Shown piece after piece: positions 6,288 to 43,545 of a DNA stretch of 64,000 nt; the stretch's first letter is position 1, and each line of letters begins with the position of its first letter. Origin of the DNA: Alphaproteobacteria bacterium (GTDB lineage Bacteria > Pseudomonadota > Alphaproteobacteria > SHVV01); assembly GCA_965261735.1 (NCBI GenBank), contig OZ253470.1, positions 1,188,129 to 1,252,128 on the forward strand, written 5' to 3'. Position numbers and translations under genes: made by a program. Below the pieces are notes generated by a model. It ran no database searches. It saw nothing but the letters and a program-made list of their open reading frames with translations, and was not told the DNA's origin.

Positions 6288-8513
<2,226 letters not shown>

Positions 8514-9765: not shown

Positions 9766-10074
9766 TCAGCCGAACGAGTAGTCCTGCACTGAAGATCGCA
9801 ACGGCCCCATGGGGTATTTGTATGGACGCCTCCCGGAACGCAAGGACCGATTTGGTCCAACGCCCGCGAAGGGTGCGAAGCGGTCGCGAATGGCGGTCGC
9901 GAGGTTTTCGGGGCCTGCTTTGCTGTCAACCGCCTCACGCAGGATGAGGCGCGCTTCTTCTTCCATTGAACGCCCCACCGTGAAACACATCAGACGACGA
10001 GACAAACTCCAGAAAATGGCATTCAGAAGTGCAATCACGCCGCCGCATCGGCTCACGATTCGTCGCGGGATCAA
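9766..10074 (-). pseudogene. Possible remnant of a ribbon-helix-helix antitoxin (VapB/FitA-like). The N-terminus is aberrant and no cognate toxin is present.
   Basis: The segment ...GRSMEEEARLILREAVDSKAGPENLATAIRDRFAPFAGV resembles the C-terminal half of FitA/VapB-type antitoxins (RSMEEE..R.IL..AV......LG..I..RFA). The expected N-terminal beta-strand region is missing. The gene is bracketed by IS630 (9695) and IS256 (10087). Confidence 0.25.
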
Positions 10075-10086
10075 GGCCTAAACCTG

Positions 10087-11537: not shown

Positions 11538-11562
11538 TAAACCTGTAGATCAGATTCTTGGT

Positions 11563-17250: not shown

Positions 17251-18230
17251 GCCGCCGCGACGATAACGCGGCTGTCGGCGGTTGGCGTCAGGAACGCTGC
17301 CGATGCGGCGGTCGTATATTGCGGGGCGGCGGTATCGAAACTGTCGGTCGCGATGGACACCTGGAGATTGCCGCAGACCTGATCGGCCTGACGGATCTTC
17401 TCCGCCGTCCTTTCCGCGAAGGATACGATCGCGTCGCGAACCTGTCCCTGATCGGCAATCGCCCGGCTGAAGCTTCGCGAACAGCAGGTGGTTTGTTTCG
17501 CGGCGGGTTGTGTCTCCAATTCATGACAGGCGATGCCGCGCAGCTCGTGCACCGTTCTGAGCCCGGTCACGCCCATGCGCTGGCGCACCCAGCCATCGGG
17601 CGCATCGCGCAGGTCCAGCGCGGTCCCGATACCGCGCCCGGCCAGCATCCTCGACCAGCGGCCACCGATGCCCCAGACATCGCCCGCGGCGGTCCTGGAG
17701 AGCGCCGGGCCGACCCAGGCGGGATTGCCCGACAGGTCGAGAACCCCTCCCGTCCGTGGCGCGCTTTTGGCGATCCTGTTGGCGATCTTGGCCAGGGTCT
17801 TGGTCGGGCCGATCCCGATCGATACCGGGATGCCGGTCCAGCGGCGGACCCGGGTGCGAAGATCTCGGCACCACCGGGTCAGGTCCGGAACCGCCAGGCG
17901 GTCGAGATCGAGGAAGCTCTCGTCGATACTGTAGACCTCGATGCGCGGCGCCTCGGCGGCCAGGATGCTCATCACCCGTTCCGACAGGTCGCCATAGAGC
18001 GCGTAGTTCGAGGACAGCACGGTGACATCGTGGCGTTCGACGAGGCGCTTCGCCTGGAACAGCGGGACGCCCATGGCGATGCCGAGCGCCTTGGCCTCCT
18101 GGGAGCGGGCGACGATGCAGCCATCGTTGTTGGACAGCACGACGATGGGGCGGCCGGCGAGCAAAGGTTGGAACACCCGCTCGCACGAGGCATAGAAGTT
18201 GTTGCAATCGACCAGGCCGATCGTGGCCAT
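17251..18230 (-). pseudogene. umuC: umuC (Y-family translesion DNA polymerase V catalytic subunit). The 3' end, about 95 codons, is removed by the IS256 copy B insertion.
   Basis: Starts [22 protein letters not shown]...[17 protein letters not shown] (palm/fingers). Homology ends at the IS256 right end at 17250. Confidence 0.85.
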
Positions 18231-18237
18231 GGACCTA

Positions 18238-18513
18238 ACGCGCGCAGTGCCGGCGGATGCTGTGGGTAACGACGCCCCAGGCCTCGCAACCGGCATCATC
18301 GAGGTCGATATCGGAAAAGGCCGGGTTCTCGGCGTAGAGGACCAATCCGTCATTGCTCTTTTTCAGGCGTTTGACCGTCAGCTCGCCATGCAGGACGGCG
18401 ATGACGATATCGTCGGCCTGGGGCGCGATGGCGCGGTCGACAACGAGAAGGTCGCCGTCGAAAATTCCGGCATCGCGCATGGATTCGCCCTGTCGTATGT
18501 AGCCACATACCAC
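18238..18513 (-). CDS. umuD: UmuD'-like S24 peptidase domain protein. It lacks the N-terminal arm that carries the RecA-dependent cleavage site.
   Basis: [42 protein letters not shown] has Ser and Lys in the LexA/UmuD context. It is 4 bp upstream of umuC. The in-frame upstream sequence hits a stop after 28 codons and contains no Cys/Ala-Gly cleavage motif. Confidence 0.7.
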
Positions 18514-18971: not shown

Positions 18972-19205
18972 GTGTGGGATGCCCGGATGAGCCCAGAAAG
19001 ACGATCGGTCTTGATGACTGTGATCGGCGGCATGATGGCTGCCGCCTACCTGGACACCGAAGGCGTCGTCGATCTGAGTTTTGGATTCCCGCAAGGTGGC
19101 GTCGTCGAGGGCGCGCTCACGGCGATCACCGGCGCCGCGGCGGGTTATGCGGTATTGTTCTTCTTCCGCAAGCTGCGGGATCTAGTGACCCGCGACGAGG
19201 AATAG
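18972..19205 (+). CDS. Hypothetical small membrane protein of about 72-77 aa with two hydrophobic segments.
   Basis: GTG at 18972 or ATG at 18987, reading LMTVIGGMMAAAYL...ALTAITGAAAGYAVLFFF. No family assignment. Confidence 0.3.
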   Translation: MWDARMSPERRSVLMTVIGGMMAAAYLDTEGVVDLSFGFPQGGVVEGALTAITGAAAGYAVLFFFRKLRDLVTRDEE

Positions 19206-19653: not shown

Positions 19654-20721
19654 CCTTGCCTATCCGGTTTACACCCACACCCACTAGGGCTAGAATGGGC
19701 GCAACCCGGATATAGGGGAGCGCGCCATGGATGTTCTCGACCGCGCCGATCTCCCATTCCCGCATTCGCTACCCGAGTTCCAGCGACTTTTCCCCGATGA
19801 TGCGGCCTGCGCCGCCTACCTGGAGAAAGCCCGCTGGGGAGACGGCTTTGCCTGCCCGCACTGCGGCACGGCGGGAGAGCCGTTCCACTTTGAAAACCGC
19901 CCTGGCGTCCTGCGCTGCCGCAAGTGCCGCCAGAACACCGGGCTGACGGTGGGAACAGTGATGGAGCGTAGCCACACTCCGCTGAACGTCTGGTTCTGGG
20001 CCGCTTATCTGGTCGCCAGTCAGACGCCCGGCATGTCCGCCGTGCAGTTTCAGCGGCAACTTGGTCTTTCGCGCTACGAGACGGCCTTTCAAATTCTCCA
20101 CAAGCTCCGCTCGGGCATGGTGCGGCCCAACCAAGACAGGATCGGTGGACAGCCCAAGAACCATGTTGAGGTGGACGAAACCTGGGTTGGCGGGCGAACG
20201 CGTGGGGAAGGCCGTGGTGTTCACCACAAGGTTCCCGTCTCCTGTGCCATCGAGGTGCGTCATCGAAAGCCGGGCACCAAGCTCGACAACCGGAAAGACG
20301 GACGCTATGCCGGACGCGTTCGGCTCGCCGTCGTGCTCGACCGTAGCGCCGAGTCGCTCTGTGGGTTCGTCGAGAGCACCGTCGCGCCGCGATCGCTGAT
20401 CGTTACTGACGATTGGAGCGGCTATGCTGGCCTCGGGAAGCGCGGCTATGAGCACTTCGCTGTTGCCGAGTGTGGTGATCCAGAGGTTGCCGAGCAATAC
20501 CTGCCGATCATCCATCTGGTTTTCGCCAACCTGAAGACGTGGCTGATCGGTATCCACCACGGCGTTAGCCACCAGCACCTACAAGCCTACCTCAACGAGT
20601 TCACCTTCCGCTTCAACAGGCGGTTCTACCCGTTCAACGCCTTCCGCTCATTGCTCGGCATCGCGGGCGACACCTCTGCTCCAACCTATGCCGAGCTTTA
20701 CTCGGGAGAGTGGCGGCACCC
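19654..20721 (+). mobile_element. IS1595-family insertion sequence, copy 1. The transposase is intact except for the C-terminal 7 aa. The right terminal roughly 36 bp, including the IR, is deleted together with the 3' end of the adjacent peroxiredoxin gene.
   Basis: Left IR CCTTGCCTATCCGGTTTACACCCACACC at 19654. The transposase (19727 onward) has an N-terminal Zn-finger CPHCG...CRKCR and a DDE domain. Homology to the intact copy 3 stops at 20721 (gagtggcggcaccc), where the copy 3 sequence tacatgtagcggtcatggg... is missing. Confidence 0.85.
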
Positions 20722-20724
20722 GGC

Positions 20725-21186
20725 GAGGTTCACCTCGAGCCCTAGCGCCCTGGTAAAGTTGCCGTTTCCGTCCGCCAGCATCAGGATCTGGCCGCCGACG
20801 TGCTGATCTCCGGCCCAGGCACACATGACGAAGGCGTCGTTAACGGCAAGGCAGGCAATCGTGTCGATTCCCTTCGCCTTGATTGTCGCGGCACTGGCGA
20901 CGAACCCGGGTAGATGCTGCGCCGAACAGATCGGTGTGAAGGCTCCCGGAACCGAAAACAGTACCACTCTCTTGCCACCGAAGAGGTCGCCCGTGGAGAT
21001 CGCCTGCGGCCCCTCGTCGGTCATCGTCATCAGGCTCGCCGCGGGGATCCTTTCACCAATGAGTATGGTCTTGCGAAGGCCGATCTCGTTCATCTGGGTG
21101 GTGAAGATGTTGTCGAATTGCTCCTTGCTGGCCTTGAACAATTCATCGAGTGATGCCGACCCTACGGCGCGATTCTGCTCGGTCAT
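20725..21186 (-). pseudogene. Prx5-type peroxiredoxin (atypical 2-Cys, AhpC/TSA fold) with a roughly 40-aa N-terminal extension. The last roughly 40 codons are missing because of an IS1595-associated deletion.
   Basis: Core ILIGERIPAASLMTMTDEGPQAISTGDLFGGKRVVLFSVPGAFTPICSAQHLPGF... ends at ...NFTRALGLEVNL and is fused to the IS tail. The N-terminus MTEQNRAVGSASLDELFKASKEQFDNIFTTQMNEIGL precedes the usual start equivalent, which is TIxxGDKLP. Confidence 0.75.
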
Positions 21187-21193
21187 CGCGGCA

Positions 21194-21721
21194 TCACAGC
21201 AGCTCGACGCATCGCGCCAACGCCCGCTCCACGGCGCGATGGAATGCCGCTTCCTCTGGATCCACGGTGGACCTGCCGCGGGACATCTCTTCAGGCTGAA
21301 TTGCGAAGGCCACACCGTCCGCGCTTCCCGTGATCTCGTGTCCATCGCCGGACGAATTGATGTGGGCCCTACCGAACTGCGACTTGCTGATGTTTTGATC
21401 CGCCAGGATCAGTTTGCACAGAACGATGAACTCATCGCCATCGCGGCGGCGATCCGCCACCTCGTAGCGCCACCCGTCGCCATAGCGGTCATCGAGGAAG
21501 CGCACCGTTTCCGACGATCCCACCGCGGCCGCCGAGTCGGGTTCGGTTGTCTGGGCCACGGGCCGTGCCGTATACGGCCCATCGCCCAGCGAATTGCCCT
21601 GACGCCCTGTGCCGGCAAGGCTTGATCCTCGGCCGGCATAGAGTTCCTCGAGCCGTTCGCGATTGCGGCCCAGCATTTCGTCAAATGCCGACGAGTAGCC
21701 GGGCCGGCGGTTGGAGACCAT
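21194..21721 (-). CDS. Standalone 175-aa protein homologous to the N-terminal extensions of both HyuB proteins in this window (GDGW / Rad52-like-signature domain). It is translationally coupled between the amidase and the peroxiredoxin.
   Basis: MVSNRRPGYSSAFDEMLGRNRERLEELYAG...RFLDDRYGDGWRYEVADRRRDGDEFIVLCKLILADQNISKSQFGRAHINSSGDG...AAFHRAVERALARCVELL. There is an 11-nt gap to the upstream gene and a 7-nt gap to the downstream gene. Confidence 0.7.
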   Translation of the reverse strand: MVSNRRPGYSSAFDEMLGRNRERLEELYAGRGSSLAGTGRQGNSLGDGPYTARPVAQTTEPDSAAAVGSSETVRFLDDRYGDGWRYEVADRRRDGDEFIVLCKLILADQNISKSQFGRAHINSSGDGHEITGSADGVAFAIQPEEMSRGRSTVDPEEAAFHRAVERALARCVELL

Positions 21722-21732: not shown

Positions 21733-22443
21733 TCAGGTTTGGGCGCTGGGCTCGCCGCTCCACCAACGTTGGAAATCGTGCCGGGCCGTGGCCGCATAGC
21801 CGCTCGTGCCGGCCGCCCTCAGGTGCGCCATCACCTCCTCGCTTGAGACAACGTCGCCGTACTTGGCGTCGATGTCGAACAGGTTGGCCTCGTGCGGCTC
21901 CTCGGCCCGATCGCCGACGCCATCGCGCACCACGATCGTGTGGTAGCCGCACTGCATCGAGTCGATCGCCGACGCACGGATGCAGCCACTTGTCGTGCAC
22001 CCGGTCATAACGATGGTATCGACACCGCGCGACTTCAGGTAGGCATCCACATCGGTGCCAAAAAAGGCGCTGGCGAACTTCTTTTCCACCACATACTCGC
22101 CGTTGTCGGGGGCGATGCGCTCGTCCACCTCGACCATCGGGGAGCCCCTGCGTAGGATGGCCAGCGCAGGCACTTTCTTGATGAACATACCCGCGTCCCG
22201 AAAGTGCGCCTCATAGGCGATCGTGGTGTACACGATAGGCAGACCGCCGCGCCGGAACGCGGCCAATAGCTCGTTCGTGACCGCCAACTGATTGGAGAAA
22301 TCACCACCCAAGGGCGTCGTCGGATCGGTGAACCCCCTGATGAAATCGACGATCAGAAGGGCGGGCTTGGTACCATACCCGGCGCGGCCGGCGAAGCCTT
22401 TGTGCCGGTACTCCTCAAACGTCTGCTCTTGCCAGTCGTTCAT
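21733..22443 (-). CDS. Isochorismatase-family cysteine hydrolase, N-carbamoylsarcosine amidase-like (paralog 1).
   Basis: ALLIVDFIRGF...VDTIVMTGCTTSGCIRASAIDSM has the D-K-C triad context of CSHase/isochorismatase hydrolases. About 45% identical to paralog 2 at 45691..46377. Confidence 0.8.
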   Translation of the reverse strand: MNDWQEQTFEEYRHKGFAGRAGYGTKPALLIVDFIRGFTDPTTPLGGDFSNQLAVTNELLAAFRRGGLPIVYTTIAYEAHFRDAGMFIKKVPALAILRRGSPMVEVDERIAPDNGEYVVEKKFASAFFGTDVDAYLKSRGVDTIVMTGCTTSGCIRASAIDSMQCGYHTIVVRDGVGDRAEEPHEANLFDIDAKYGDVVSSEEVMAHLRAAGTSGYAATARHDFQRWWSGEPSAQT

Positions 22444-22722
22444 TTTGCACCTCCGCAAGAGACCTGAGCCCGCGACCGCCAGCCCGGCCATCGCAGCGTC
22501 GCTCGGCCTCGCTGCCGCCTCGATTTAACACCTCTTGAGGACTTCGATCAACGCGAGCAGAACCGCGGCGAACTGGCTTGATCTCCGCCGGTTAGCCCAT
22601 TATCAACAAAAGGGCAAGGGAGCCCTTCGATTCTGTGGACATCCGGGCCGCGCGATCGGCGGGAGAGACGATCGCCGGAGTGAGTGTCTCAAGATCAACG
22701 CCAATTCGTGGGAGAGCGACCG

Positions 22723-23826: not shown

Positions 23827-24156
23827 ATGTGCAGCTTGTGCGGGGTGCTCGCAGGCCGGGGGCATTGGACGGAGTCTTCGAGCCATCCTGAGGCGTTCGC
23901 GGACGGCGCGCCAGCGACCCGGCGGGCGGAGCGCCAACGGCGCGCGCGCCTCGCCAGCACGATTCTCAAGTTTTACGGGCTGACGCTCCGAGATTGGGAG
24001 GGCACGTCCTATATATTGCAGGGCGGCACCGGCCGGACCCTTTTGATCGAGAATCTGACTGACCTGTGGGCCGCCGCCGACCGTATGAGCGGAAGGACCT
24101 GCGACCCGCTGGACGCCTCCCTACTGGCCGCGCTAACCGGGGCGGAACATCCATGA
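23827..24156 (+). CDS. Hypothetical 109-aa protein, translationally coupled upstream of the COG0523 GTPase.
   Basis: Strong RBS AGGAGG 11 nt upstream. Stop is 13 nt before the GTPase start. No recognisable domain. N-terminus MCSLCGVLAG. Confidence 0.45.
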   Translation: MCSLCGVLAGRGHWTESSSHPEAFADGAPATRRAERQRRARLASTILKFYGLTLRDWEGTSYILQGGTGRTLLIENLTDLWAAADRMSGRTCDPLDASLLAALTGAEHP

Positions 24157-24169: not shown

Positions 24170-25264
24170 ATGACGGACTACGCTTCCCTCCTGCCGATCA
24201 ATGTCATAACCGGGTTTCTCGGCAGCGGCAAAACCACCCTGCTGCGGGATTTGTTGCGATCGCCGCACCTACGCGACACCGCGGTGCTGATCAACGAGTT
24301 CGGCGAAGTAGGACTGGATCATCATCTGTTCCGCCACGTCTCCGAGAGCACGGTGCTGCTCGAGAACGGCTGCCTCTGTTGCGCCGTACGCGGCGATCTC
24401 AAGTTGGCCCTGCACGATCTGCTGTCGAAGCGCGACAAAGGAGAGCTGCCCCCCTTCCGGCGCGTCGCGATTGAGACCTCCGGCCTCGCCGACCCCGTGC
24501 CCATCGCCTACACAATCCTGGCCGAACCGGTCCTGCAACACCACTTCCGCCTCGGCAACGTGGTGACCACGATTGACGCGGTGAACGGGGCGGGTCAACT
24601 GGATCAGTTCGAGGAATCGGTGAAACAGGTCTCCGTCGCCGATCGCTTGGTGTTGACCAAGACGGACCTCTGCGGTGCGCCGGAGGTTGCGGTGCTTCGC
24701 GATATTTTGAGCCGCCTCAACAAGTCGGCGCCGGTGTTCGAGTCGGTCGCGGAGGGGATCGATCCCGAGCATCTGCTGGCGCAGGATATTTACAATCCGG
24801 GCGACTACCGGGAAGCAAGCCGATGGCTCGTCGACCGTAGCGAACACCCGGTAAGTGCGGAATGCGAGATTCTCCACCACCACCACGACCCGGGCATCTT
24901 CTCCTTTTGCCTGTGTTTCGATCAGCCCATGGATTGGACTGCCTTTGGCGTCTGGATGACGATGCTCCTCAACCGCCATGGCGAAAAAGTGCTCCGCATC
25001 AAGGGCATGCTCAACGTTGCCGGCCAAGCCGCTCCCGTGCTTATCAACGGGGTGCAGCACATCGTGCATCCACCAGCCCATCTCGACGACTGGCCCGACG
25101 CGGATCATCGCTCGCGCATCGTGTTCATCGTTCGTGACATGTCGCGCCGGCGCATCGAGGCTTCTCTGGCGGCCTTCAACGACCTCGCCAATCCGCGCGC
25201 CACCATGGACGCCGAAAACCGACCCGGGCCGACCACGGCCCTCGACTCTGCCAGCGTCGGTTAA
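24170..25264 (+). CDS. COG0523 / CobW-family G3E GTPase, a putative metal-insertion chaperone.
   Basis: Walker A GFLGSGKTTLL, the metal-binding GCLCCAVR (CxCC) motif, and the His-rich stretch ILHHHHDPG. Confidence 0.85.
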   Translation: MTDYASLLPINVITGFLGSGKTTLLRDLLRSPHLRDTAVLINEFGEVGLDHHLFRHVSESTVLLENGCLCCAVRGDLKLALHDLLSKRDKGELPPFRRVAIETSGLADPVPIAYTILAEPVLQHHFRLGNVVTTIDAVNGAGQLDQFEESVKQVSVADRLVLTKTDLCGAPEVAVLRDILSRLNKSAPVFESVAEGIDPEHLLAQDIYNPGDYREASRWLVDRSEHPVSAECEILHHHHDPGIFSFCLCFDQPMDWTAFGVWMTMLLNRHGEKVLRIKGMLNVAGQAAPVLINGVQHIVHPPAHLDDWPDADHRSRIVFIVRDMSRRRIEASLAAFNDLANPRATMDAENRPGPTTALDSASVG

Positions 25265-25914
25265 GGGGCCGAGTCGGACGAAGACACCCGCGGTGGTGGC
25301 CGGCGCGGACGCCAGCCGATCCTGAAAGCGCGCACCGCGTGGTGGAGCAGGAAAAACGCTATCGCGAGAATCACCAGCAAGATGATGGCGAGGAGCTTGC
25401 CGCCAAACCCCGCATCGATGATCGGACCACGGCTCATCAAGTGCTCGCTCAGCATCTCGACGGCTTGCAGAGTGGCGCCGCCAAAAAAGATCAAGGCTAT
25501 GAGAATGGCTATCTGTAGGGTATCGAAGACGAGCCCTTCGACCTCAAGATCAGTGGCGGCCCGGAAGATGTTTCTGCGGAAGGATTGCCAATGGGAGACC
25601 GCGTAGCCGATCACCCCGACGAGCGACGCGAACCAGAATATGACGTTGGAAAAATGGATGCGCGGAATACTTTGGGTCAAGTAATCTTCGAACGGCCGAT
25701 AAAAATAGAGGAAGATCAACAGTATGACGAGACCAACCAGGATGATCCAAAACCTCGGCCGCTGCCAACTGGTGCTGTCCTGTGCCATGATGAGCGGGGC
25801 CGCTCCGTCCCGGGGGTTCCAGTAGCTGCTTATCGTCTCGGCGCACCTCGGGCAAGCCAAAAAACGGCTCTCGCCAACCTCGACCTCAATGCACTGCGGT
25901 GAATCCGTTCTCAC
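25261..25914 (-). CDS. 4-TM membrane protein of unknown function, paralog A. The likely start is the internal Met at 25788.
   Basis: ...LYFYRPFEDYL...IFWFASLVGVIGYAVSHWQSFR...FGGATLQAVEMLSEHLM...IDAGFGGKL... is about 40% identical to 39509..39976. Confidence 0.55.
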   Translation of the reverse strand: MRTDSPQCIEVEVGESRFLACPRCAETISSYWNPRDGAAPLIMAQDSTSWQRPRFWIILVGLVILLIFLYFYRPFEDYLTQSIPRIHFSNVIFWFASLVGVIGYAVSHWQSFRRNIFRAATDLEVEGLVFDTLQIAILIALIFFGGATLQAVEMLSEHLMSRGPIIDAGFGGKLLAIILLVILAIAFFLLHHAVRAFRIGWRPRRPPPRVSSSDSAP

Positions 25915-26133: not shown

Positions 26134-28197
26134 ATGAGCAGCCGCCTCGGCATTGATGTGGGTGGGACTTTCACCGATCTCTTGCTGTTCAACGAGAGTA
26201 GCGGCGAAATCCACCTGCTCAAGACGCCGTCCACGCCCGAAGACCAGTCGGTCGGCATTCTCAACGGCGTCGAGCGGCTGATCGCCCAATCGGGCATACC
26301 CGCGGCCGAGATTCAGACGGCACTCCACGGCACCACGGTATCGACAAACATCGTGCTCGAGGAAAAAGGCGCCAAAGTCGGCCTGCTGGTCACGGAAAAC
26401 TTCGAGCAGGTGCTGCATTTGGCGCGGTCGCAGACGCCGGGGCCGCTGGCCGGTTGGATCATCATGATCAAGCCGGATCCGCTCGCGGATCTGGAGTTGA
26501 CCCGTGGTGTCCCGGAACGCATCAACGCGCGCGGCGAAATCCTCAAGCCGCTCGATGAAGCCTACGTGCGCACCGCCATACCGGACCTCATAGAGGCAGG
26601 CGTGGAATCGATTACGGTATCATTACTCCATTCCTACGCCAACGCCGCGCACGAGGTACGGATCAAGGAGATCATCCAGGACCTGGGAATCGAGGTGCCG
26701 GTTTCGCTGTCCAGCGAAATTCTCCCGGAGTTTCGTGAATACGAGCGGACTCTGGTCACGGTGATGAACGCCTACGTGCGGCCCAGCATGCGCAGCTATC
26801 TGAGGAACTTCGAGGACAAGTTGCGCAGCATCCAGTTTTCGCCCCATGTGAACATCGTGCGCTCCGATGGCGGACTGATGAGCGTGGAGCGCGCCTCCGA
26901 GTCCCCCGTCTACACGATGTTGTCCGGGCCGGCGGGCGGGGTTTCGGGTGCCGCTTTTCTCGCCGCGCTGGCCGGGAGCCCCAATGCTCTCGGTTTCGAC
27001 ATGGGTGGCACCTCGACCGACGTTTCGCTGATCCAAGATGGCCAACCGATGATCTCGCGCCAGACCTCGCTCGGCTATTACCCACTGAAGGTGCCCTCCG
27101 TCGAGGTACACAGCGTCGGCGCAGGTGGCGGCTCCATCGCCCATGTGCCGATGACCGGCGCTCTGCGCGTCGGTCCCGAGAGCGCGGGCGCCGCGCCTGG
27201 CCCCGCCTGCTACGGTAGGGGCGGCGACCAGCCCACGGTGACGGACGCCAACGTGGTGCTCGGGCGCTTGCCGCCGAGCCTGCTCGGCGGCGACATGGCG
27301 CTGGACGTCAAGGCGGCCGAGGAAGCGGTGGCGAAGATCGGGCGCGCCCTTGGTCTCGACACCTACCAGGCGGCTCAGGGGATTCTCGATATCGTCAACG
27401 AGAACATGTTCGGGGCGCTGCGACTGGTATCGGTGCAGAAGGGTCTCGATCCGCGGGACTTCGCGCTCGTCGCCTTTGGCGGGGCGGGCCCCCTTCACGG
27501 CAATGCCATGGGCGCGCTCGCGCAGTGCTACCCGGTGATCATCCCCCCGACCCCTGGAGTGCTCTCGGCCCTAGGGTTTCTCTACTCGGACGTAAAGAAC
27601 GAGTTCGCCAAGACGTTTATCCGCAATCTCAACGAAGTGCATGCCGGCGATGTGACGGAAATCTTGACGCGGCTAGGCACTGAGGCGACAGCGTGGCTGC
27701 GCGAGGAAGGCATCGAGGAGCGAAGCCAGGAGCTGCGCTTCGAGGCCGACGTGCGGTATTTTCGCCAGGGCTACGAGATCTCCCTTACCGTGACCCCCAG
27801 CACGTTGGTCAATGGCGGAATCCAGGATATTGAGAATCGTTTCGGCGCCATCCACGAACGGCTGTATGGTTTCAAGTTGGATGCGCCGGTCGAGCTCGTG
27901 AACCTGCGCGCCGTCGGTACCGGCCGGGTGGTGAAGATCAAGTTCCCGAGCTTCGAGAAGCAAGGCAGCGATCCCTCCCCCGCCATGGTGGATCAACACC
28001 GGGTCTACTTCGACGGCAACTTTGTGTCGGCCAACGTTTACGATCGCAACCTGCTCGCCGCGGGCAACCGCATCTCGGGCCCAGCGGTGGTCACACAAAC
28101 GGATTCGACCACCCTCATCCACCCCGCGCACAGCGGAGAGGTGGACGCGTATCTGAACATCTTGATTTATCCGCAGGGCGCGAGTCCTTCGGCATGA
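26134..28197 (+). CDS. hyuA: Hydantoinase A / N-methylhydantoinase (ATP-hydrolysing) A subunit / oxoprolinase family, copy 1.
   Basis: 687 aa. N-terminal ASKHA fold GIDVGGTFTDLLLF, an AAGGRSGA-type motif region and a DMGGTSTD motif. RBS AAGGAAAGG. Confidence 0.9.
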   Translation: MSSRLGIDVGGTFTDLLLFNESSGEIHLLKTPSTPEDQSVGILNGVERLIAQSGIPAAEIQTALHGTTVSTNIVLEEKGAKVGLLVTENFEQVLHLARSQTPGPLAGWIIMIKPDPLADLELTRGVPERINARGEILKPLDEAYVRTAIPDLIEAGVESITVSLLHSYANAAHEVRIKEIIQDLGIEVPVSLSSEILPEFREYERTLVTVMNAYVRPSMRSYLRNFEDKLRSIQFSPHVNIVRSDGGLMSVERASESPVYTMLSGPAGGVSGAAFLAALAGSPNALGFDMGGTSTDVSLIQDGQPMISRQTSLGYYPLKVPSVEVHSVGAGGGSIAHVPMTGALRVGPESAGAAPGPACYGRGGDQPTVTDANVVLGRLPPSLLGGDMALDVKAAEEAVAKIGRALGLDTYQAAQGILDIVNENMFGALRLVSVQKGLDPRDFALVAFGGAGPLHGNAMGALAQCYPVIIPPTPGVLSALGFLYSDVKNEFAKTFIRNLNEVHAGDVTEILTRLGTEATAWLREEGIEERSQELRFEADVRYFRQGYEISLTVTPSTLVNGGIQDIENRFGAIHERLYGFKLDAPVELVNLRAVGTGRVVKIKFPSFEKQGSDPSPAMVDQHRVYFDGNFVSANVYDRNLLAAGNRISGPAVVTQTDSTTLIHPAHSGEVDAYLNILIYPQGASPSA

Positions 28198-28205: not shown

Positions 28206-30497
28206 ATGACTGACCTGAACCCGCCGCGCAGATCGGTCTCGCTGGACGACTTGCTGAAGGCCAACAAGGCGCAGTTCGACAGTGTCTTCGCGGCCCAGAT
28301 GAGGGACACGGGCCTGGTGAGCGTGACCCATCGGCCGGCCACGGCAGAGGATCTTGTCTCGGCTAGCCTAGGGGTCCGGGCGGTCGTCGACGGCGACGAT
28401 AGTACGGCACTCCTCGACGGGCGGTTTGGCGAGGGTTGGTCATCCGAGGTCGTCGAACACAAGACCGAAGGCGGCTCGGTCACGGTGCTGTGCAAGCTCG
28501 TGGTGGACGGGGTTTCAAAAATGCAGTTCGGTGCGGCACGGATCAACGGCGATCAGGGTGCCGCTCTGCAAAGGGCGACCGACGAGGCGCTCAAGAAGTG
28601 TGCGGCCCTGTTCGGGCCGCGAGAGGGGCTGCCGGAGGCAGAGGCCGGAGGCCCCGCCGCCCGACCGCAAGAGGCGCCGGCCGCGGGAGCCCAGCCCGAT
28701 GCCGCCGTGCCCAGCCTCGCCGCCCCCACTAGCCGTGCGCTGGACACGATCACCCTGGATCTCATCGAAAACGCGCTGCGCAACGCCCGGCACGAGATGG
28801 ACGCCGTACTCTTCCGCTCCGCCATGTCACCCGTGATCCGCGAGCAACACGACGAGTTTCCCATGATCACCGACCCCAAGGGGCGGATGATCGTCGGCCA
28901 GTTCGGCTCCTACGTCGCCGAGATGCTGCGCGAGCAGAACATGCAGGTTGATCCGGGCGACGTCATTCTCAATAACGATCCCTTCAAATGCGGCGGCGCC
29001 ATCAGCCATATCAACGATTGGCTCGTGCTCGTGCCGATCTTTCACGGCAACGAACTTGTCGGCTTCAGCTCCATGTTCGGCCACATGATGGACGTCGGCG
29101 GCTGGGTGCCCGGCAGCATGCCGACCGCCGCCACGTCGATCTTCGGCGAGGGAATCCGCATCCCGCCGATCAAGATCTACGCGAAGGGCGAGATCAACAA
29201 GGCGGCGCTCGGCATCATCATGAACAACACGCGCACGCCCGAAATGAACTACAGCGACCTCATGGCTATCATCGCCGGCTGCCGTGCCGGCGAGAAGCGG
29301 GTGATCCAGATCTGCGACCGCTTCGGTAAGGACACCTACATTCAGGCGTGTGAGGCCCTGCTTGAGCGTACCAACCGCGCGATGCGGCAGCTCATCGTTC
29401 AGAACCTGCCCAATGAGCCTCAGTCGTTCGAAGACTACGTAGATGATGACGGCTGCGGCAACGGCCCCTTCAAGATGAAACTGACCGTGTGGCGCGAGGG
29501 CGACGAGGCCTTCTTCGATTGGACGGGGACCTCAGATCAGGCGCCGGGTCCGATCAATTTCTTCCTCAACGAGGGCATGTTCAAGATGTTCATCGGGGTC
29601 TACATGATCATGGTGTTCGACCCCCAGATTCTCTTCAACGACGGATTCTACGACCTCATTCACGTGACCCTACCCAAAGGGTCGCTCGTGCACCCGGAGT
29701 TCCCGGCAGCGCTGGGCTGCCGCACGCACGCCCTCGCCCGCCAGTTCGACGTCCTCGGCGGCGCGCTGAGTAAAAACGCGCCGGAAATGGCCACTGCCGC
29801 CGGCTATGGCTCAAGCCCTCACTTCCTGTACTCGGGCGTTGACGGCGATGGCCGCCCGTTCCAGCTCATGGAGATACTGTTTGGCGGGATTCCCGGCCGC
29901 CCGGTAGGCGACGGCATGGATGGCCACTCGTGGTGGCCGCTATTCGAGAATATTCCCACCGAATACCTCGAAACCTACTATCCGATGATCATCGAAAACT
30001 ACACCACGCTAGCCGACACCGGCGGCGCTGGGAGGCACCGCGGCGGCAACGGCGTCGAAAAGGTTTACTTGTTGTTGGAGAACGGCGAGATCTCCATCCA
30101 CGATGACCGCCATCTCACCCAGCCGTGGGGGATTCTCGGAGGACAACCGGGCGCTTGCTCGGAAAAATGGCTGGAGAAAGAGGACGGGTCCAGGGAGCCG
30201 TTGCCCTCGAAGGTGGACAACGTAAGAGTGCGCGGGGGCGACAGGATCATCTTCCGCACCGCCGGCGGCGGCGGCTGGGGCGACCCATTGGAACGCGAGC
30301 CGGCAAAGGTGCGCGGCGACGTGGTGCGCGGTCTCTTGACCGTGGGCGCCGCCCAGGAACGGTACGGCGTGGTCATCGGCAGCGTCGGGCTCACCATTGA
30401 CGACCGGGCGACCCAGGAGTTGCGCGAGAAGCTGAAAGGGAATCGAGGGACCCTCCCGGTGTTCGATTTTGGTGCGCAGCCATCGGGTCATGCATGA
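28206..30497 (+). CDS. hyuB: Hydantoinase B / oxoprolinase-family subunit, copy 1, with an unusual roughly 190-aa N-terminal extension: an amphipathic peptide, a GEGW (Rad52-like-signature) domain and a Pro/Ala-rich linker.
   Basis: The HyuB homology starts at about residue 190 (LDTITLDLIENALRNARHEMDAVLFRSAMSPVIREQHDEF...). The N-terminus is MTDLNPPRRSVSLDDLLKANKAQFDSVFAAQMRDTGL...LLDGRFGEGWSSEVVEHKTEGGSVTVLCKLVVDGVSKMQFGAARINGDQGAALQRATDEALKKCAALFGP. Confidence 0.85.
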   Translation: MTDLNPPRRSVSLDDLLKANKAQFDSVFAAQMRDTGLVSVTHRPATAEDLVSASLGVRAVVDGDDSTALLDGRFGEGWSSEVVEHKTEGGSVTVLCKLVVDGVSKMQFGAARINGDQGAALQRATDEALKKCAALFGPREGLPEAEAGGPAARPQEAPAAGAQPDAAVPSLAAPTSRALDTITLDLIENALRNARHEMDAVLFRSAMSPVIREQHDEFPMITDPKGRMIVGQFGSYVAEMLREQNMQVDPGDVILNNDPFKCGGAISHINDWLVLVPIFHGNELVGFSSMFGHMMDVGGWVPGSMPTAATSIFGEGIRIPPIKIYAKGEINKAALGIIMNNTRTPEMNYSDLMAIIAGCRAGEKRVIQICDRFGKDTYIQACEALLERTNRAMRQLIVQNLPNEPQSFEDYVDDDGCGNGPFKMKLTVWREGDEAFFDWTGTSDQAPGPINFFLNEGMFKMFIGVYMIMVFDPQILFNDGFYDLIHVTLPKGSLVHPEFPAALGCRTHALARQFDVLGGALSKNAPEMATAAGYGSSPHFLYSGVDGDGRPFQLMEILFGGIPGRPVGDGMDGHSWWPLFENIPTEYLETYYPMIIENYTTLADTGGAGRHRGGNGVEKVYLLLENGEISIHDDRHLTQPWGILGGQPGACSEKWLEKEDGSREPLPSKVDNVRVRGGDRIIFRTAGGGGWGDPLEREPAKVRGDVVRGLLTVGAAQERYGVVIGSVGLTIDDRATQELREKLKGNRGTLPVFDFGAQPSGHA

Positions 30498-30592: not shown

Positions 30593-33409
30593 ATGCTCGA
30601 CATAGCGATCCCAATCCTCATCTTCGCGATCATTGTCATCGCCATCCTGTATGTCGTCTCAATCTGGATTTACAAGCGTTCGCCCACCAACATGGCATTC
30701 ATCCGCACCGGTTTCCTGGGCACCAAGGTATGCCTGGGCCGGGGCGCTCTGGTGTTTCCGGTTTTCCACGAGGTCACTTGGGTTTCCCTGGAGACGATCA
30801 AACTCATCGTAAGCCGCGCCCGTGAGCAGGGCGTTCTCACAGCCGACAAGATCCGCATCGACGTCGGCGCCGAGCTCTACGCCCATGTCGGCCACACGCC
30901 CGAGGCCATTCTCACGGCGAGCCGGAGTTTGGGCGAGAAGACATTCGACGCCGAGAAGGTACGCAACCTGCTCGAGGCCAAGGTCGTCAGCGCGCTCAGG
31001 AGCTACGCGGCGACCAAGACCCTTAGCGAGCTGCACGAAAACCGGGACGCCTTTGCCCGCGAAATCAAAGCTAGTGTGACGGAGAGCTTTGAGGCCAATG
31101 GCCTCACGCTTGAGGAAGTGACGATCGTCACCATGGAGCAAACGCCAAAGGAGTACTTCAAGACCGACAACGTGTTCGACGCCGAGGGGCTCAAGATCAT
31201 CACGGAAATCACTTCCGATGCCCGTAGAGAGGTCCACGACACCGAGAAGCGCACGACCGTGTCCATCCGCCAGAAGGACCTGGACACGCAACTCGAGCTC
31301 CTCGAAATCGAACGGCAGGAGGCCGTCGCCCGGGCGGGCCAGGACAAGGCAGTATCCAACGAGCAGGCGCTTCAGCTCGGCCAAAAGCAGATCTACGTTC
31401 TCGACCAGCGCAAAGCCGTCGAGGAAAAGGAGATCGAGAACGAGAAAGCGCTGGAGCGCATGCGGACCGATCGCGATCTGATCATCACCGAAGAGGCGAA
31501 GAAGCGCGAGGCTTCCGAGATCCAAAAAGAGTTGGCACTAGAGCAGGAGCGCAAGGACCGGGAGATTGCGATTATCGCCAAGGCGAGGGAAGAAGAGCTG
31601 GCCAACATCGCACGCAATCTAGCTCTCGAGCAGGCTGAGAAAGATCGCCAAATCGCCTTGATCGCCAAGGCGAAGCAGGAGGAATTGGCCGATATCGAGC
31701 GAGCGCTGGCACGCGATCGGGCCGCGAAAAACAGCGAAATCGAGCTCATCGCCACGGATCAGGAACGCCAGCAGACTGAGATTCAGCGTGCCACGGCGGT
31801 TATGGCCGAGGAGGAGGCGGCACGCGATCGGCGCCATCAGGCTGGTGAGGAGGCCGCCATATCCATGCGCAGGCGTAGCCTCCAGACCCGCCTCAGCACG
31901 CTTGACCTGGACAAGGACGAGGCGTTCGCCGAAGCCCGCCAGGAGCAAGAGGTGTCCAACGAAAAGGCGCGCGTACTCAGCGAACAACAGCGCTTCATCC
32001 TCGAGCAGCGTTGGCAAGTCGAAGAAGAAGAGATCAACAAGGCGCGGGCGGTCGAGGCCGCCGAAATCCACAAGGAAGCCGGAATTATCGAAACCATGAA
32101 AACACGCGAGGCCGCCGAGGTGCGCCGTGCCCTGGCCCGCGAGCAGGAGGAAAGGGACCGTGAGATCGCGCTGGTCGCCAAGTCGCAGGAGCTCGAACAG
32201 GCGGAAATCCGCCGCAAGTTGGCGGGCGAACAGGAAGATCGCGACCGCCAGCTCGCCCTTGTCGCCAAGGAGGAAGAGCTGCGACGTGCCGAGGTGAGGC
32301 AGGCCCTGGCGGTCGAGCTCGAGGAACGAGCCCGCGAGATCACGCTCATTGGCAAGGAACAGGAGCGCGAAATAGCGGATATCGGTCGCTTTCTGGCGCG
32401 CGAAAAGGAGGAACGCGACCGCGAGATCGCGTTGGCCGAAAAAACTCGGCAGCTGGAGGAAGCGGAGATCAAGCGCCTGGAGGCCTCCGCAAAGAGGGAG
32501 CGGGCCCAGCACAACGTGGAATCGGTGAGCCTCCTCGCCGACGCCGAGCGCACCAAGAACATCGAACGCGTCGAAGCCGAAAGGTTGGCTGAAAGCCGTC
32601 GGATCGACGAGGAAAATAAGGCCCAGATCAACCGCATGCACATGCTGGCTCAAGCCGAGACGCGGAAGCTGTCGGCTGAGCAGGAATCCGATGCGACGCT
32701 CATCAGAGCTCGCGCTACGAGCGAGGCCCAGAAGATTACCGCCGAGGGGATCGAGAAGGAGGCGGGGGCCACAGGCCGGGCCGAAATGGAGATCGAAGCG
32801 CTGCGTGCCGCCAACGCCCGGCGCATGCTCGAGGCCGAGGCTTCAGGCCTTGAAGCCAAGGCGGTCGCGCTGAAGAAGTACAACGAGTCCGGGGCCTTCC
32901 TGGAATTGGCAAAGATGCGTATCGAGGCCGAGCGCGACATCCACATCGATCAGGCCAAGGCCATGGGGAGCGCCCTGCAGGGTGCGCAAATCCGCATGTA
33001 TGGCGGCGAGAATGGCACCGTCGATACCATTCGCAGCATGTTTACCTCTGGGTTCGCGCTCGGCGAGGTTCTGGAGGGGGTGGCGCAGTCCTTACCCGAG
33101 GGCTTGCGCGGGCGATTCAAGGACAACGGCCTCAGGGGTCTTTTCGGCAAGCCGTACGGGACCAGCGATTTCAAGCATTCCATCGAGGACTTGAGCAAGC
33201 TGGTCCAGAAGAGCTTGCGTACGCGCAAAGACAAGGAGATCCCCTTCGCGGAAGCCGTGACCATTTTGCAGGAAAAGGCCGGCGGGGATGACGGCCAGGC
33301 GAAAGCGGTCGGCCTTCTCAAGGAGATGAACGAACAGGGGCAATTCGACGACCTTTCCTTTGACAAGGTGTGGGCGCTTATAAGAGCCGCGGCAAAGTCG
33401 GCGGACTGA
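30593..33409 (+). CDS. Flotillin-like SPFH/band-7 protein (YqiK/FloT type), unusually long at 938 aa with an expanded Glu/Ala/Arg-rich repeat region.
   Basis: N-terminal TM (ILIFAIIVIAILYVVSIW), an SPFH domain (FIRTGFLGTKVCLGRGALVFPVFHEVTWVSLETIKL...), about 500 aa of roughly 28-residue coiled-coil repeats (REQEERDREIALVAKSQELEQAEIRRKLAGEQEDRDRQLALVAKEEELRRAEV...), and a flotillin C-terminal tail. Confidence 0.85.
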   Translation: MLDIAIPILIFAIIVIAILYVVSIWIYKRSPTNMAFIRTGFLGTKVCLGRGALVFPVFHEVTWVSLETIKLIVSRAREQGVLTADKIRIDVGAELYAHVGHTPEAILTASRSLGEKTFDAEKVRNLLEAKVVSALRSYAATKTLSELHENRDAFAREIKASVTESFEANGLTLEEVTIVTMEQTPKEYFKTDNVFDAEGLKIITEITSDARREVHDTEKRTTVSIRQKDLDTQLELLEIERQEAVARAGQDKAVSNEQALQLGQKQIYVLDQRKAVEEKEIENEKALERMRTDRDLIITEEAKKREASEIQKELALEQERKDREIAIIAKAREEELANIARNLALEQAEKDRQIALIAKAKQEELADIERALARDRAAKNSEIELIATDQERQQTEIQRATAVMAEEEAARDRRHQAGEEAAISMRRRSLQTRLSTLDLDKDEAFAEARQEQEVSNEKARVLSEQQRFILEQRWQVEEEEINKARAVEAAEIHKEAGIIETMKTREAAEVRRALAREQEERDREIALVAKSQELEQAEIRRKLAGEQEDRDRQLALVAKEEELRRAEVRQALAVELEERAREITLIGKEQEREIADIGRFLAREKEERDREIALAEKTRQLEEAEIKRLEASAKRERAQHNVESVSLLADAERTKNIERVEAERLAESRRIDEENKAQINRMHMLAQAETRKLSAEQESDATLIRARATSEAQKITAEGIEKEAGATGRAEMEIEALRAANARRMLEAEASGLEAKAVALKKYNESGAFLELAKMRIEAERDIHIDQAKAMGSALQGAQIRMYGGENGTVDTIRSMFTSGFALGEVLEGVAQSLPEGLRGRFKDNGLRGLFGKPYGTSDFKHSIEDLSKLVQKSLRTRKDKEIPFAEAVTILQEKAGGDDGQAKAVGLLKEMNEQGQFDDLSFDKVWALIRAAAKSAD

Positions 33410-41304: not shown

Positions 41305-43545
41305 CTAGCGAGACCGCAATCGCTGGGTCTCCTCCGAATTCAGGGTGTCAGCGACCGGATCGATGGCGACTCCGTAAACATCTCGGGCGATCTCTATTGT
41401 TATGTAGTCGTCCAGATAATCGCCCAGCACCATCGCCGGATCACGCGCTTTAGGATCGCCGTAGCCACCGCCGGAGGGCGCCGTGATTTGGATCAGATCG
41501 CCAGCTTCCATCTTATATCCGGTGACCTTGGAGGGCCAGTTCTGCTCTTCTGCCGTGCCCGGGTTCTTAACGAGCTTGCCCGTGTGGCCTTCCGTCCCAC
41601 CGAAGACGCCGTGCGGCTTTTCCAGGTGGCGGTCCGCCTCACACGAGATGTAACCCGGTGCGAGGAACCGGTTCTCGCGCACGATGCCGATGCCGCCGCG
41701 CCACTGGCCGGCGGCCGGAGGATCGGGCCGCAACTCGTAGCGCTCGTTGCGGATCGGATAGTGCATGTCGAGCTCTTCGACCGGATTGTTGCGCGTGTTG
41801 GCCATAAGGTTGTCGACGCTGTCCATGCCGTCCTTGCCGTGTCGGCCGCCGTAACTCCCCTCGTCGACCTCCAGATAAACCCAGTATTGCTGTTTCTCGG
41901 GAATGAACCCGCTGTAGGAGATGAAATAGAGCGACGCGGAATTGCCCCCGGTCGCCCTTTCCGGGATGACCGGCGACAGCGCGTGAATGACGCAGTCCAG
42001 CACCCTCTGAATCTGGGCGAAGCGTGAAAAGCAGGCGCGCGGAAAGTTTGGATTGAAGATCGTGCCCTTGGGGGCAATGACGTTGACCGGGCGGAAGATG
42101 CCCTCGTTTTGCGGGATGAACTCCTCGAAGGTCACTTCGTCCAGCATTAGGGTACGAACGATGTAGTTGCAAGCGACCACGAGACTGCCCTCGAAGGGCA
42201 CGTTGAAGCCGGTCTCCACCTCGGCCGCCGACCCGGTGAGGTCGATGGTGATGTCGCTGCCCTTGACACGCACGGTGACGTTGACCTTCAGCGGCGTATC
42301 GCGGTTTTTCCCGTCGTCATCCAGCCAGCCCTCGGAGTGGTACTCACCGTCGGGAACCTTTTCGATCTCGGCGCGCAGCATTCTTTCCGAGTAGTCCATC
42401 CAATAGTTTGCCGTGCCCATGACGGTGTCCGCGCCGTATTTCCCGACGAGCCGCAGAAAACGCTCGCGTCCGATTTCCACCGCCGCGATCATCGCCTCGA
42501 TATCCGAGGTATCCATGTCGGGGGTGCGCACGTTGTCCTTGAGGAGTTGCCAGACCTCCTCGTTACGGGTTCCGCGGTCGTACAACTTGATGGCGTTGAA
42601 GAGCTTGGACTCGGCGTAGACGTCGACCACGTCGACATTGATGCCGGGGGCGGCGCCGCCCATGTCGAGCAGGTGCGCGGTGCAGGCGGAGAACCCCAAT
42701 AGCCCGCCGTCATGAACGATGGGCACGATCACGGCCACGTCGGGCGTATGCGAGGCGCCGTAATAGGGGTGGTTGTGGATGATGACGTCGCCCTCGTGGA
42801 TGTTGCCGGCCAACCGTTTCAGGATGCCTCTGATGTACCAGGGAAGAGAACCGATGTGCATCGGCGTGCTCTCGCTCTCGCAGAGCTCATTCCCTTCCAT
42901 GTCGAAAATGCCGCAACCCAGGTCCTCCGACTCGCGAATGATGCTCGAGTAGGACATTCGGTAAAGGACGTGGGCCATCTCCTTGGCGATGGCGTTGAAG
43001 GCGCCGCCCACCACGCGAAGCGTGACTGGGTCGAGGTCCTGATATGAAAAGTCGGTAATCTTCGATGGCGCCGGACGGCCAGTCAGCGCCACCGCGGTCG
43101 AAACTGGCTCGGAGTCGGCCTGTCGCAACGCTGGCAGCTGGGGCGCGGGCGCCGGCCGCAGAGCCTCCGCCGCCGGTTCCGTTGCCTCGGGCGGGGAGGC
43201 TACCGGAGCGTCCGTTGTGGCCGGTAGCCCCGGTCGCGGCCGGACCGTGTCCGGCGGCGCGGCGCCCCGCCCGGTATCGACGAGCGTCATTGCGCACTGG
43301 AGGAGGCTGTCGTCGGAGGCGACCTCGAGCTGCTCGCCCAGCGACAGACCACCGCGCCCGTTGGCCGTTCCCGATTTTCGCACCTGGGCGCCGTCCGCCC
43401 GCAGCTCGCCTTCCACTTCCACGCCGTCGCCACGCAGGTGGTGGTTGATAATGTCGAAACTCCAACCGTCGCCGTAGGCGTCGCGGAGTGCCTTGACGAC
43501 GGCGGGGACGGTTGTTGGTCCCGTCGTACTTGGCGCGTCATTCAT
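41305..43545 (-). CDS. hyuB: Hydantoinase B / oxoprolinase-family subunit, copy 2, with a roughly 175-aa N-terminal extension: a GDGW domain and a Pro/Ala-rich linker.
   Basis: MNDAPSTTGPTTVPAVVKALRDAYGDGWSFDIINHHLRGDGVEVEGELRADG...SLLQCAMTL, then a P/A/T-rich linker, then HyuB homology from ...LDPVTLRVVGGAFNAIAKEMAHVLYRMSYSSIIRESEDLG. Confidence 0.85.
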   Translation of the reverse strand: MNDAPSTTGPTTVPAVVKALRDAYGDGWSFDIINHHLRGDGVEVEGELRADGAQVRKSGTANGRGGLSLGEQLEVASDDSLLQCAMTLVDTGRGAAPPDTVRPRPGLPATTDAPVASPPEATEPAAEALRPAPAPQLPALRQADSEPVSTAVALTGRPAPSKITDFSYQDLDPVTLRVVGGAFNAIAKEMAHVLYRMSYSSIIRESEDLGCGIFDMEGNELCESESTPMHIGSLPWYIRGILKRLAGNIHEGDVIIHNHPYYGASHTPDVAVIVPIVHDGGLLGFSACTAHLLDMGGAAPGINVDVVDVYAESKLFNAIKLYDRGTRNEEVWQLLKDNVRTPDMDTSDIEAMIAAVEIGRERFLRLVGKYGADTVMGTANYWMDYSERMLRAEIEKVPDGEYHSEGWLDDDGKNRDTPLKVNVTVRVKGSDITIDLTGSAAEVETGFNVPFEGSLVVACNYIVRTLMLDEVTFEEFIPQNEGIFRPVNVIAPKGTIFNPNFPRACFSRFAQIQRVLDCVIHALSPVIPERATGGNSASLYFISYSGFIPEKQQYWVYLEVDEGSYGGRHGKDGMDSVDNLMANTRNNPVEELDMHYPIRNERYELRPDPPAAGQWRGGIGIVRENRFLAPGYISCEADRHLEKPHGVFGGTEGHTGKLVKNPGTAEEQNWPSKVTGYKMEAGDLIQITAPSGGGYGDPKARDPAMVLGDYLDDYITIEIARDVYGVAIDPVADTLNSEETQRLRSR

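Follow-up and report, generated by a model that had tools for sequence, protein, structure and literature searches.

A conserved N-terminal helix of alphaproteobacterial HyuB proteins encoded beside a giant flotillin, and its occurrence on a peroxiredoxin in one lineage

In a 64,000-nt stretch of an alphaproteobacterial contig (OZ253470.1, positions 1,188,129 to 1,252,128; the window hereafter), the initial annotation had described a similar amphipathic peptide of about 30 residues at the N-termini of three proteins: a peroxiredoxin (Prx5), the subunit HyuB1 of a hydantoinase-type enzyme, and a small standalone protein with what was called a GW domain. The peptide was proposed to be a docking or targeting tag joining peroxide-handling and amide-hydrolysing enzymes in one assembly, which raises the questions of whether the similarity is real, which proteins carry the peptide, and what it might bind. 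Our analysis indicates that the peptide, here called helix 1, is best explained as the docking helix of an N-terminal module of HyuB, directed at a partner encoded in the same gene cluster, and that the Prx5 copy is a fusion limited to one lineage; we place the probability of this explanation as a whole at roughly 60%. Numbers beginning with L and P are our labels for related loci or contigs and for proteins.

Two of the three carriers are encoded on the reverse strand in the tightly spaced operon reported earlier, whose three open reading frames (ORFs) and both gaps were confirmed. The first gene encodes an isochorismatase-family amidase resembling N-carbamoylsarcosine amidase (21733..22491; PF00857, E=1.6e-38; likely start M17 at 22443), and its stop at 21733 is followed after 11 nt by the ATG (21721) of the 175-residue standalone protein (21194..21721), whose own stop at 21194 lies 7 nt from the prx ATG at 21186. 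The peptide of Prx5 occupies codons 1-38 (21073..21186), with its core S10-L37 at 21076-21159, and that of HyuB1 occupies residues 10-37 (28233..28316, forward strand). The two agree at 19 of their first 40 residues, at 16 of the 28 core residues, and at 63% of nucleotides. Against a profile of 75 distinct HyuB peptides from other organisms, HyuB1 reached 56 bits and the Prx5 peptide 46.6 bits (E=1e-13 in a set of 1096 window ORFs), with the best match after these two at E > 5, and a degenerate DNA pattern for the motif matched the window exactly twice, versus no match in 100 shuffles. The reported similarity of these two N-termini is therefore upheld and, on sequence comparison, is a matter of homology and not of chance. 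For the standalone protein the claim of a shared peptide stands in part: its peptide is too divergent for the HyuB-peptide profile, but profile-profile comparison of the HyuB and standalone peptide families gave a probability of 90.8% (E=1.2e-6), and in a joint alignment it sits ahead of a domain homologous to that of HyuB1. Searches of PDB sequences with the module profile and with the peptide profile returned no significant match.

HyuB1 (28206-30497, forward strand) has a 178-residue extension ahead of its Hydantoinase_B domain. In an AlphaFold2 (AF2) model built on an alignment of 49 sequences, this extension comprises a helix at residues 13-34 with a predicted local distance difference test (pLDDT) score of about 89, a weaker helix at 47-57 with low pLDDT, a confident alpha-beta-beta-beta-alpha domain at 64-135 (28395..28610; pLDDT 94-98), and a disordered Pro/Ala-rich linker. 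The weaker helix overlaps a second conserved motif, HRPxTxxDLxSASL (motif 2; residues 41-55, 28326..28370). The linker (residues 136-178) and the catalytic domain that follows it together span 28611..30497; the PF02538 match (E=1e-149, residues 180-694) covers all 519 profile positions and HyuA is encoded directly upstream, which identifies the protein as HyuB. The model of the standalone protein follows the same plan, with a helix at residues 10-31 (21629-21694), a disordered stretch at 32-65, and the domain again, here with one additional hairpin (core 71-174, 21200-21511); the linkers have low pLDDT in both models. The homology of HyuB1 residues 1-137 to the standalone protein extends along the entire module, peptide and GW domain included, and a single alignment unites HyuB N-terminal extensions, standalone proteins and HyuB2 (41305-43545, reverse strand), a paralogue with a third copy of the domain (43276..43506) and no helix 1. 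The carriers are consequently not three otherwise unrelated proteins, as had been thought, and the "GW protein", which by homology is a paralogue of HyuB's N-terminal module encoded as a separate protein, should be annotated accordingly.

The GW domain itself is a Rad52-fold domain. Its beta-beta-beta-alpha core has the expected fold. At the level of sequence, the match to PF04098 (Rad52_Rad22) remained below the cutoff of 20.3 bits (16.8 bits, E=0.0065), and the family profile reaches the single-strand annealing protein P0331 at E=5.5e-16; P0331 in turn matches Erf-like/SSAP PHROGs. A search with the same profile gave 1262 cluster representatives, the top 150 of which were standalone proteins (140-200 aa) or HyuB fusions (750-780 aa), plus P0331. 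No curated Pfam or NCBIfam family was found for the HyuB N-terminal module, and the standalone protein had no Pfam or NCBIfam match. The presence of a Rad52/Mgm101-type annealing-protein fold on catabolic enzymes is an unexpected reuse of this fold. In several long-read contigs of metagenome-assembled genomes (MAGs; L001 at 10001-12317, and P0008, P0013 and P0029-P0033), gene calling splits the HyuB module from the catalytic domain into two overlapping ORFs, owing to frame changes inside the GC-rich Pro/Ala linker. These split calls, including many short standalone-like matches that run into hyuB, are probably assembly indels in the linker.

To determine where helix 1 occurs, the pattern [LF]-D-[DE]-L-[LF]-[KN]-A-x-K-x-x-F-D-x-(V/I/L/M/F; T at the second codon position)-F was searched as degenerate DNA in 185,579 species, with one genome each, and in 241 million metagenome records. 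The genome scan gave 59 loci, comprising 58 HyuB N-termini and one chance match; the 58 are from alphaproteobacterial MAGs (Xanthobacteraceae, Rhodospirillaceae, one SAR324). The metagenome scan gave 69 loci, all except one of which (68/69) were HyuB N-termini, their fragments or hyuB 5' ends that had been rearranged. In 51 of these, helix 1 was found with both the Rad52-like domain and HyuB, and eight more were alike but ran off the contig end or were rearranged. Six were classed by script as HyuB without a Rad52-like domain, of which L077 and L106 carry a divergent domain that had escaped the pattern; L121, which the script left unclassified, is a HyuB with helix 1 that truly has no such domain. 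The remainder consisted of one truncated fragment, one chance match and one chimera (L076). Apart from the chance matches and this chimera, neither scan found another enzyme class with helix 1. The reading of the peptide as a tag on unrelated cargo was not borne out: helix 1 does not recur on several non-homologous proteins across genomes, and its carriers are HyuB, Prx5 in one clade of at least 98% identity, and, in divergent form, the standalone protein. It is retained without the Rad52-like domain in L020, L095, L099, L070, L121 and L133.

Two rearranged sequences deserve separate mention. On L076, a 1.8-kb metagenome contig, helix 1 is joined to a truncated Amidohydro_2 domain (profile positions 102-289 of 289), and in L075/P0037 a partial module is joined to TctC-like sequence. 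Either the assemblies are chimeric or the 5' ends of hyuB have truly been rearranged.

Within HyuB, helix 1 is under clear constraint. Conservation, measured as the mean fraction of the top residue across 53 species, was 0.79 for helix 1, 0.76 for motif 2 and 0.79 for the Rad52-like domain, versus 0.49 for the variable stretch and 0.37 for the Pro/Ala linker, in agreement with the earlier idea of a short N-terminal helix followed by a linker. Positions left free by the search pattern are nearly invariant as well (N20 in 74/75, Q23 in 70/75, Q31 in 73/75 and G36 in 73/75 peptides). Pairwise nucleotide divergence at codon positions 1, 2 and 3 was 0.25, 0.16 and 0.44, a codon periodicity indicating that helix 1 is translated and selected in HyuB. 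Helix 1 is an ancestral, selected and translated feature of this HyuB clade and of its paralogue, the standalone protein. Its invariant residues, polar ones included, lie on every face of the helix, which favours a specific protein interface over a membrane-surface helix. A secretion signal or a membrane-surface helix appears unlikely given the invariant polar residues, the absence of a hydrophobic core, and a modest hydrophobic moment of 0.32-0.48.

The gene that follows hyuB is also constant. In the window, hyuB1 is followed on the forward strand by a gene for a 938-residue flotillin of the SPFH family (30593..33409), with a hydrophobic N-terminal transmembrane (TM) segment, a Band_7 domain placed after this membrane anchor (PF01145, E=3.1e-16, residues 45-190) and a long charged repeat region. 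A flotillin gene is next after hyuB in 38/38 genome loci and 37/37 metagenome loci with enough downstream sequence (75/75), a link far stronger than could be known when the flotillin beside hyuAB1 was first remarked on, and it is still found downstream where the Rad52-like domain has been lost (L095, 676 aa; L099, 714 aa). The window also contains a second cluster (39509-46377, reverse strand) with an isochorismatase-family gene, HyuA2, HyuB2, a 353-residue multi-TM protein and a 155-residue paralogue of the small membrane protein described below. No flotillin is encoded in this cluster, and the two genes downstream of HyuB2 (40126-41187 and 39509-39976) have no Band_7 match. Flotillin orthologues are 938-1081 residues long. 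At residues ~300-700 (31500-32700), the window protein contains similar charged segments in a long run, for example EQERKDREIAIIAKAREEELANI and EQAEKDRQIALIAKAKQEELADI, which suggests by sequence resemblance that internal repeats set its unusual length.

These observations can be combined in the following scheme. A module consisting of helix 1, motif 2, a Rad52-fold domain and a Pro/Ala linker was added to HyuB, the beta subunit of an ATP-dependent enzyme of the hydantoinase/lactamase type, in a clade of Alphaproteobacteria. Helix 1 would hold the protein that bears it to another product of the cluster, most probably to the giant flotillin whose gene comes next after hyuB. Three observations make the flotillin the best candidate: the gene order is strict, helix 1 persists where the Rad52-like domain is gone, and HyuB2 offers a contrast, though a single one. 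The basic residues after the flotillin's N-terminal TM segment suggest, by the positive-inside rule, that the scaffold faces the cytoplasm, within reach of a cytosolic enzyme. By analogy with the rings of Rad52, Mgm101 and Sak, the Rad52-like domain might supply oligomerisation and could multimerise HyuB, and through the same domain the standalone paralogue could recruit the amidase. In the fusion, 38 codons from the beginning of such a module, with its start codon, lie exactly at the place expected for the start codon of prx; if the tag is still able to bind, Prx5 would be carried to that partner in the one lineage concerned. The most specific version, in which helix 1 is a flotillin cargo-addressing peptide for HyuAB (and for Prx in one lineage), a Rad52-fold ring multimerises the enzyme and the standalone protein adds the next enzyme to a flotillin-anchored catabolic assembly at the membrane, is speculative, and we think it unlikely to hold in every part. 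To our knowledge, the way in which bacterial flotillins choose their clients is largely unknown, and we know of no short recognition sequence that has been defined. A 28-residue helix nearly invariant across >100 alphaproteobacterial loci is a testable candidate for client recognition: it is always found on an enzyme with a giant flotillin gene next to it, is kept when the folded domain is lost, and has been captured at least once by another enzyme.

Several observations weigh against this proposal. Of the 16 motif positions, 11 were fixed fully or partly by the search pattern, so that their invariance is in part a sampling effect. The choice of flotillin as partner draws on synteny and on one contrast within the window, the HyuB2 cluster, and HyuA and the small membrane protein, being equally syntenic, are equally possible partners. 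That the Rad52-like domain forms rings is an assumption drawn from its fold alone. The standalone family is also found in loci with neither hyuAB nor flotillin within 10 kb (L064, L068), and its divergent helix 1 may have a different binding partner. Finally, the peptide meets Prx5 cleanly and in frame at the very start codon, and four intact alleles survive, both of which hint that the fusion reflects function rather than accident.

In the fusion itself, the junction of the peptide with the Prx5 fold is at R38/K39 and coincides with the start Met of other Prx5 proteins, and the Redoxin domain that follows (20698..21072, reverse strand; PF08534, E=8.5e-25) has the PGAFTPICS motif. In the window the domain is incomplete, as the allele has lost its last 47 residues. 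Compared with the 100%-identical metagenome contig L002, the window has a 164-bp deletion beside an insertion sequence (IS) of the IS1595 family, with its junction at 20721, that removed the last 47 prx codons together with the end of the IS; the last eight codons and the stop of the remaining gene are IS-derived. The deletion also removed the stop of the IS1595-family transposase ORF (19727..20806, forward strand; PF12762 and PF12760), which is accordingly extended to 359 aa instead of 339 aa. The window prx gene should be annotated as a truncated fusion allele. Three forms of the gene are represented: 198 aa with a natural C-terminus and no IS downstream (L138), 202 aa with IS1595 at the 3' end (L002), and 162 aa (the window). 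The fused 198-aa gene in L138 shows that the fusion predates the IS insertion, and IS1595 was rejected as its cause.

Outside these close relatives the fusion was not found. With 8000 Prx5 homologues scored, P0045 (100% identical) alone covers the peptide among the matches listed; the next 119 listed are without it, are at most 71% identical, are almost all 160 aa long and cover 73-80% of the query. The seven of these examined at full length have no peptide, and four of the seven begin with MTIKVGD. The 90% cluster of P0045 contains five variants with at least 98% identity, and the strain variants of the fusion differ at four of 1766 nt, too few for a test of selection. No Prx5 domain was matched in 126 related loci. 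The Prx5 peptide retains 12 of the 15 near-invariant positions of helix 1 and deviates at D15E (found in 3% of HyuB peptides), L17F (0%) and N20S (1%). The peptides nearest to it, with 19 of 28 residues identical, are from HyuB variants without the Rad52-like domain. A recent copy from hyuB1 of the same genome was rejected, given the 63% nucleotide identity and the nearer peptides elsewhere. Judged by these comparisons, the copy on Prx5 is rare and was captured recently, the fused gene being restricted to one lineage.

One competitor to a HyuB docking helix with a one-lineage fusion is that helix 1 is a general addressing tag by which Prx5, HyuB and the standalone protein co-assemble with flotillin, coupling amide hydrolysis to peroxide detoxification. 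The fusion begins with the module's own start (MT[DE]xN) and meets Prx5 in frame and exactly at its start codon, as would be expected of a tag, and the retained positions and the score of 46.6 bits, the intact alleles in at least four strain variants and the age of the fusion relative to the IS insertion all agree with this idea. Support of another kind comes from a relative with the same operon, L062/63, in which a BCP-type peroxiredoxin gene (10559-11005) lies right after the standalone gene. That gene, however, has its own Shine-Dalgarno sequence and no peptide, and it is frameshifted into two ORFs without the catalytic "GCT" segment. The fusion is confined to one clade and was not found in the 185,579 species genomes or the 241 million metagenome records, and the Prx5 peptide departs from HyuB at positions that are 97-100% invariant there, in a gene that is truncated in the window. 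With the fusion limited to one clade and no Prx5 in related loci, the co-assembly of peroxide-handling and amide-hydrolysing enzymes comes down to one recent fusion; this part of the earlier hypothesis is not supported, and we regard a general tag as improbable. The clean junction and the four intact alleles speak for tagged Prx5 joining the same assembly as HyuB; its restriction to one lineage, its three deviant residues and the truncation of its gene in this genome speak against it. The L062/63 gene is of interest in its own right as an independent second case of a peroxiredoxin in this place of the operon.

Another explanation, to which we likewise give little credence, is that helix 1 belongs structurally to the Rad52-like module, packing on the domain in cis or bridging adjacent subunits of a ring, and would be a meaningless remnant on Prx5. 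Two paralogous families have helix 1 ahead of the Rad52-like domain, the pLDDT of helix 1, about 80-89 in AF2 models, is high for a helix without a partner, and Rad52-family proteins have N-terminal helices before the beta-beta-beta-alpha core. However, HyuB variants that have no such domain keep helix 1, with flotillin downstream, while HyuB2 has the domain without helix 1, and between helix 1 and the domain lie 30-60 variable linker residues with pLDDT <50.

Still more doubtful is the explanation that the Prx5 peptide is not made at all, with translation starting at M32 and the upstream codons being rearrangement debris. An in-frame ATG is present at this codon, eight codons upstream of T40, the first residue of the Prx5 fold, so a shorter Prx5 product is possible, and neither ATG has a clear Shine-Dalgarno sequence before it. 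The region is rich in IS elements, and chimeric hyuB 5' ends occur elsewhere, as noted above for L076 and P0037/L075. On the other side, the reading frame stays open, with homology, from the Met of the module itself, and a gap of 7 nt behind the standalone stop is in keeping with translational coupling. The claim of a genuine in-frame extension is sustained as far as the lack of a Met at the canonical start is concerned, and is qualified by the internal ATG and by the truncation of the window gene. A chance or low-complexity match, which the shortness of the segment and its common alanine, lysine and aspartate residues might have allowed, is refuted by the profile E-value and the shuffle control, by the single chance match in 596 Gb of genomes, and by polar residues conserved position by position across HyuB orthologues, and has a negligible probability.

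Helix 1 was also compared with known targeting peptides. The encapsulation peptides of bacterial microcompartments (BMCs) are N-terminal amphipathic helices on PduP, PduD, EutC and similar proteins. Helix 1 resembles them as a short predicted N-terminal helix followed by a poorly conserved, disordered linker, and its capture by Prx5 indicates that it is transferable in principle; it differs in being near-invariant all round, polar residues included, rather than on the hydrophobic face only, and in belonging to one enzyme family rather than to several cargo types. Encapsulin systems are known to include peroxidase-type cargo, and their cargo-loading peptides, like helix 1, are short sequences joined to the enzyme through a flexible linker, but these are usually C-terminal and extended rather than helical, whereas helix 1 is N-terminal. 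BMC shell genes (PF00936/PF03319) were absent from the Pfam matches of the scanned window genes, which do not exhaustively cover ORFs <100 aa, and from the gene lists of five related 20-kb loci, L001, L002, L062/63, L064 and L138, and no encapsulin shell gene (PF04454) was present in the same window genes and lists. The absence of shell genes from the lists examined indicates that helix 1 belongs to neither system, and a BMC or encapsulin cargo peptide was rejected for this reason.

The remaining parts of the system likewise have partial counterparts. Like the Rad52/Mgm101/Sak annealing proteins, the GW domain has an "A-T-D-x-A-L-K/R-x-C/A" helix motif and is linked to them through the profile match to P0331; unlike them, it is encoded in a catabolic operon rather than with recombination or phage genes, is fused to or paired with enzymes, and has a sub-threshold Rad52_Rad22 score. 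The arrangement of an SPFH gene in a strictly conserved operon with a presumed client recalls stomatin-NfeD, HflKC-FtsH and the clients of FloT/FloA. Here, in contrast, the client would be an amidohydrolase, soluble and ATP-dependent, whose N-terminal helix is dedicated to this purpose, there is no NfeD partner, and the flotillin is of exceptional length. The catalytic domains of HyuA and HyuB fully match those of caprolactamase, N-methylhydantoinase and acetophenone carboxylase. The best NCBIfam matches were CapA and CapB, below their equivalog cutoffs and with no equivalog-level names, and unlike in caprolactamase the CapB model (577 positions) aligns only from residue 179 of HyuB1, leaving the N-terminal module unmatched. 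In the library searched, no paper was found that links hydantoinases with flotillins or with Rad52, and a paper on SPFH evolution (PMC2636767) mentions neither hydantoinase nor oxoprolinase. Taken in this context, helix 1 would be a terminal docking helix of a known kind with an unusual Rad52-fold companion and a testable link to flotillin, and the claim of a peroxide/amide co-assembly is weak.

The conserved cluster as a whole comprises the amidase and standalone genes, a polysaccharide-deacetylase-family enzyme, a 109-residue protein, a CobW-type GTPase, a small membrane protein, HyuA, HyuB with its module, and flotillin. HyuA1, the alpha subunit (26134..28197, forward strand), has Pfam Hydantoinase_A with its N- and C-terminal domains, and its stop lies 8 nt before the hyuB1 ATG; HyuA was found in 56 genome and 64 metagenome loci. 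The small membrane protein (25261..25914, reverse strand), divergent from hyuA1 and with a paralogue at 39509-39976, was found in 35 genome and 34 metagenome loci. The 109-aa protein (23827-24156) occurs in 19 genome and 17 metagenome loci, and neither it nor the small membrane protein had a Pfam or NCBIfam match. The standalone gene always lies directly after an isochorismatase-family gene, sometimes overlapping it (L001, L062/63, L064/65, L068, L138). The amidase is 236 aa long as called in L002 and L138, and its plasmid homologues are annotated as N-carbamoylsarcosine amidohydrolase, in a plasmid search that gave nothing beyond partial matches to single genes. If it is an N-carbamoyl-amino-acid hydrolase, as these annotations suggest, we infer that it may catalyse the step after HyuAB.

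The surroundings of both hyu clusters are rich in mobile elements. Three IS1595-family transposases with identical N-termini (19727-20806, 46390-47325 and 52774-53793) bracket the two clusters, and the ORF at 46390-47325 is chimeric, running into unrelated and apparently foreign sequence. Before the prx operon in window coordinates, two pairs of ORFs have identical first 40 residues (8541-9650 and 13640-14749, which are equal, and 10235-11218 and 15965-17179, which are similar), suggesting that a block of mobile-element genes about 5 kb long has been duplicated. Near 19159-19187, the window is missing a 738-bp segment of L002 (12194-12931) that overlaps a DDE_3 transposase gene. A catalase-peroxidase-like gene (6324-8513; 729 aa, with a Pfam peroxidase domain) lies among IS elements 13 kb from prx, and a pair of umuD-like (Peptidase_S24) and umuC-like (IMS) genes at 17154-18513 adjoins the IS-rich stretch, as it does in L002.

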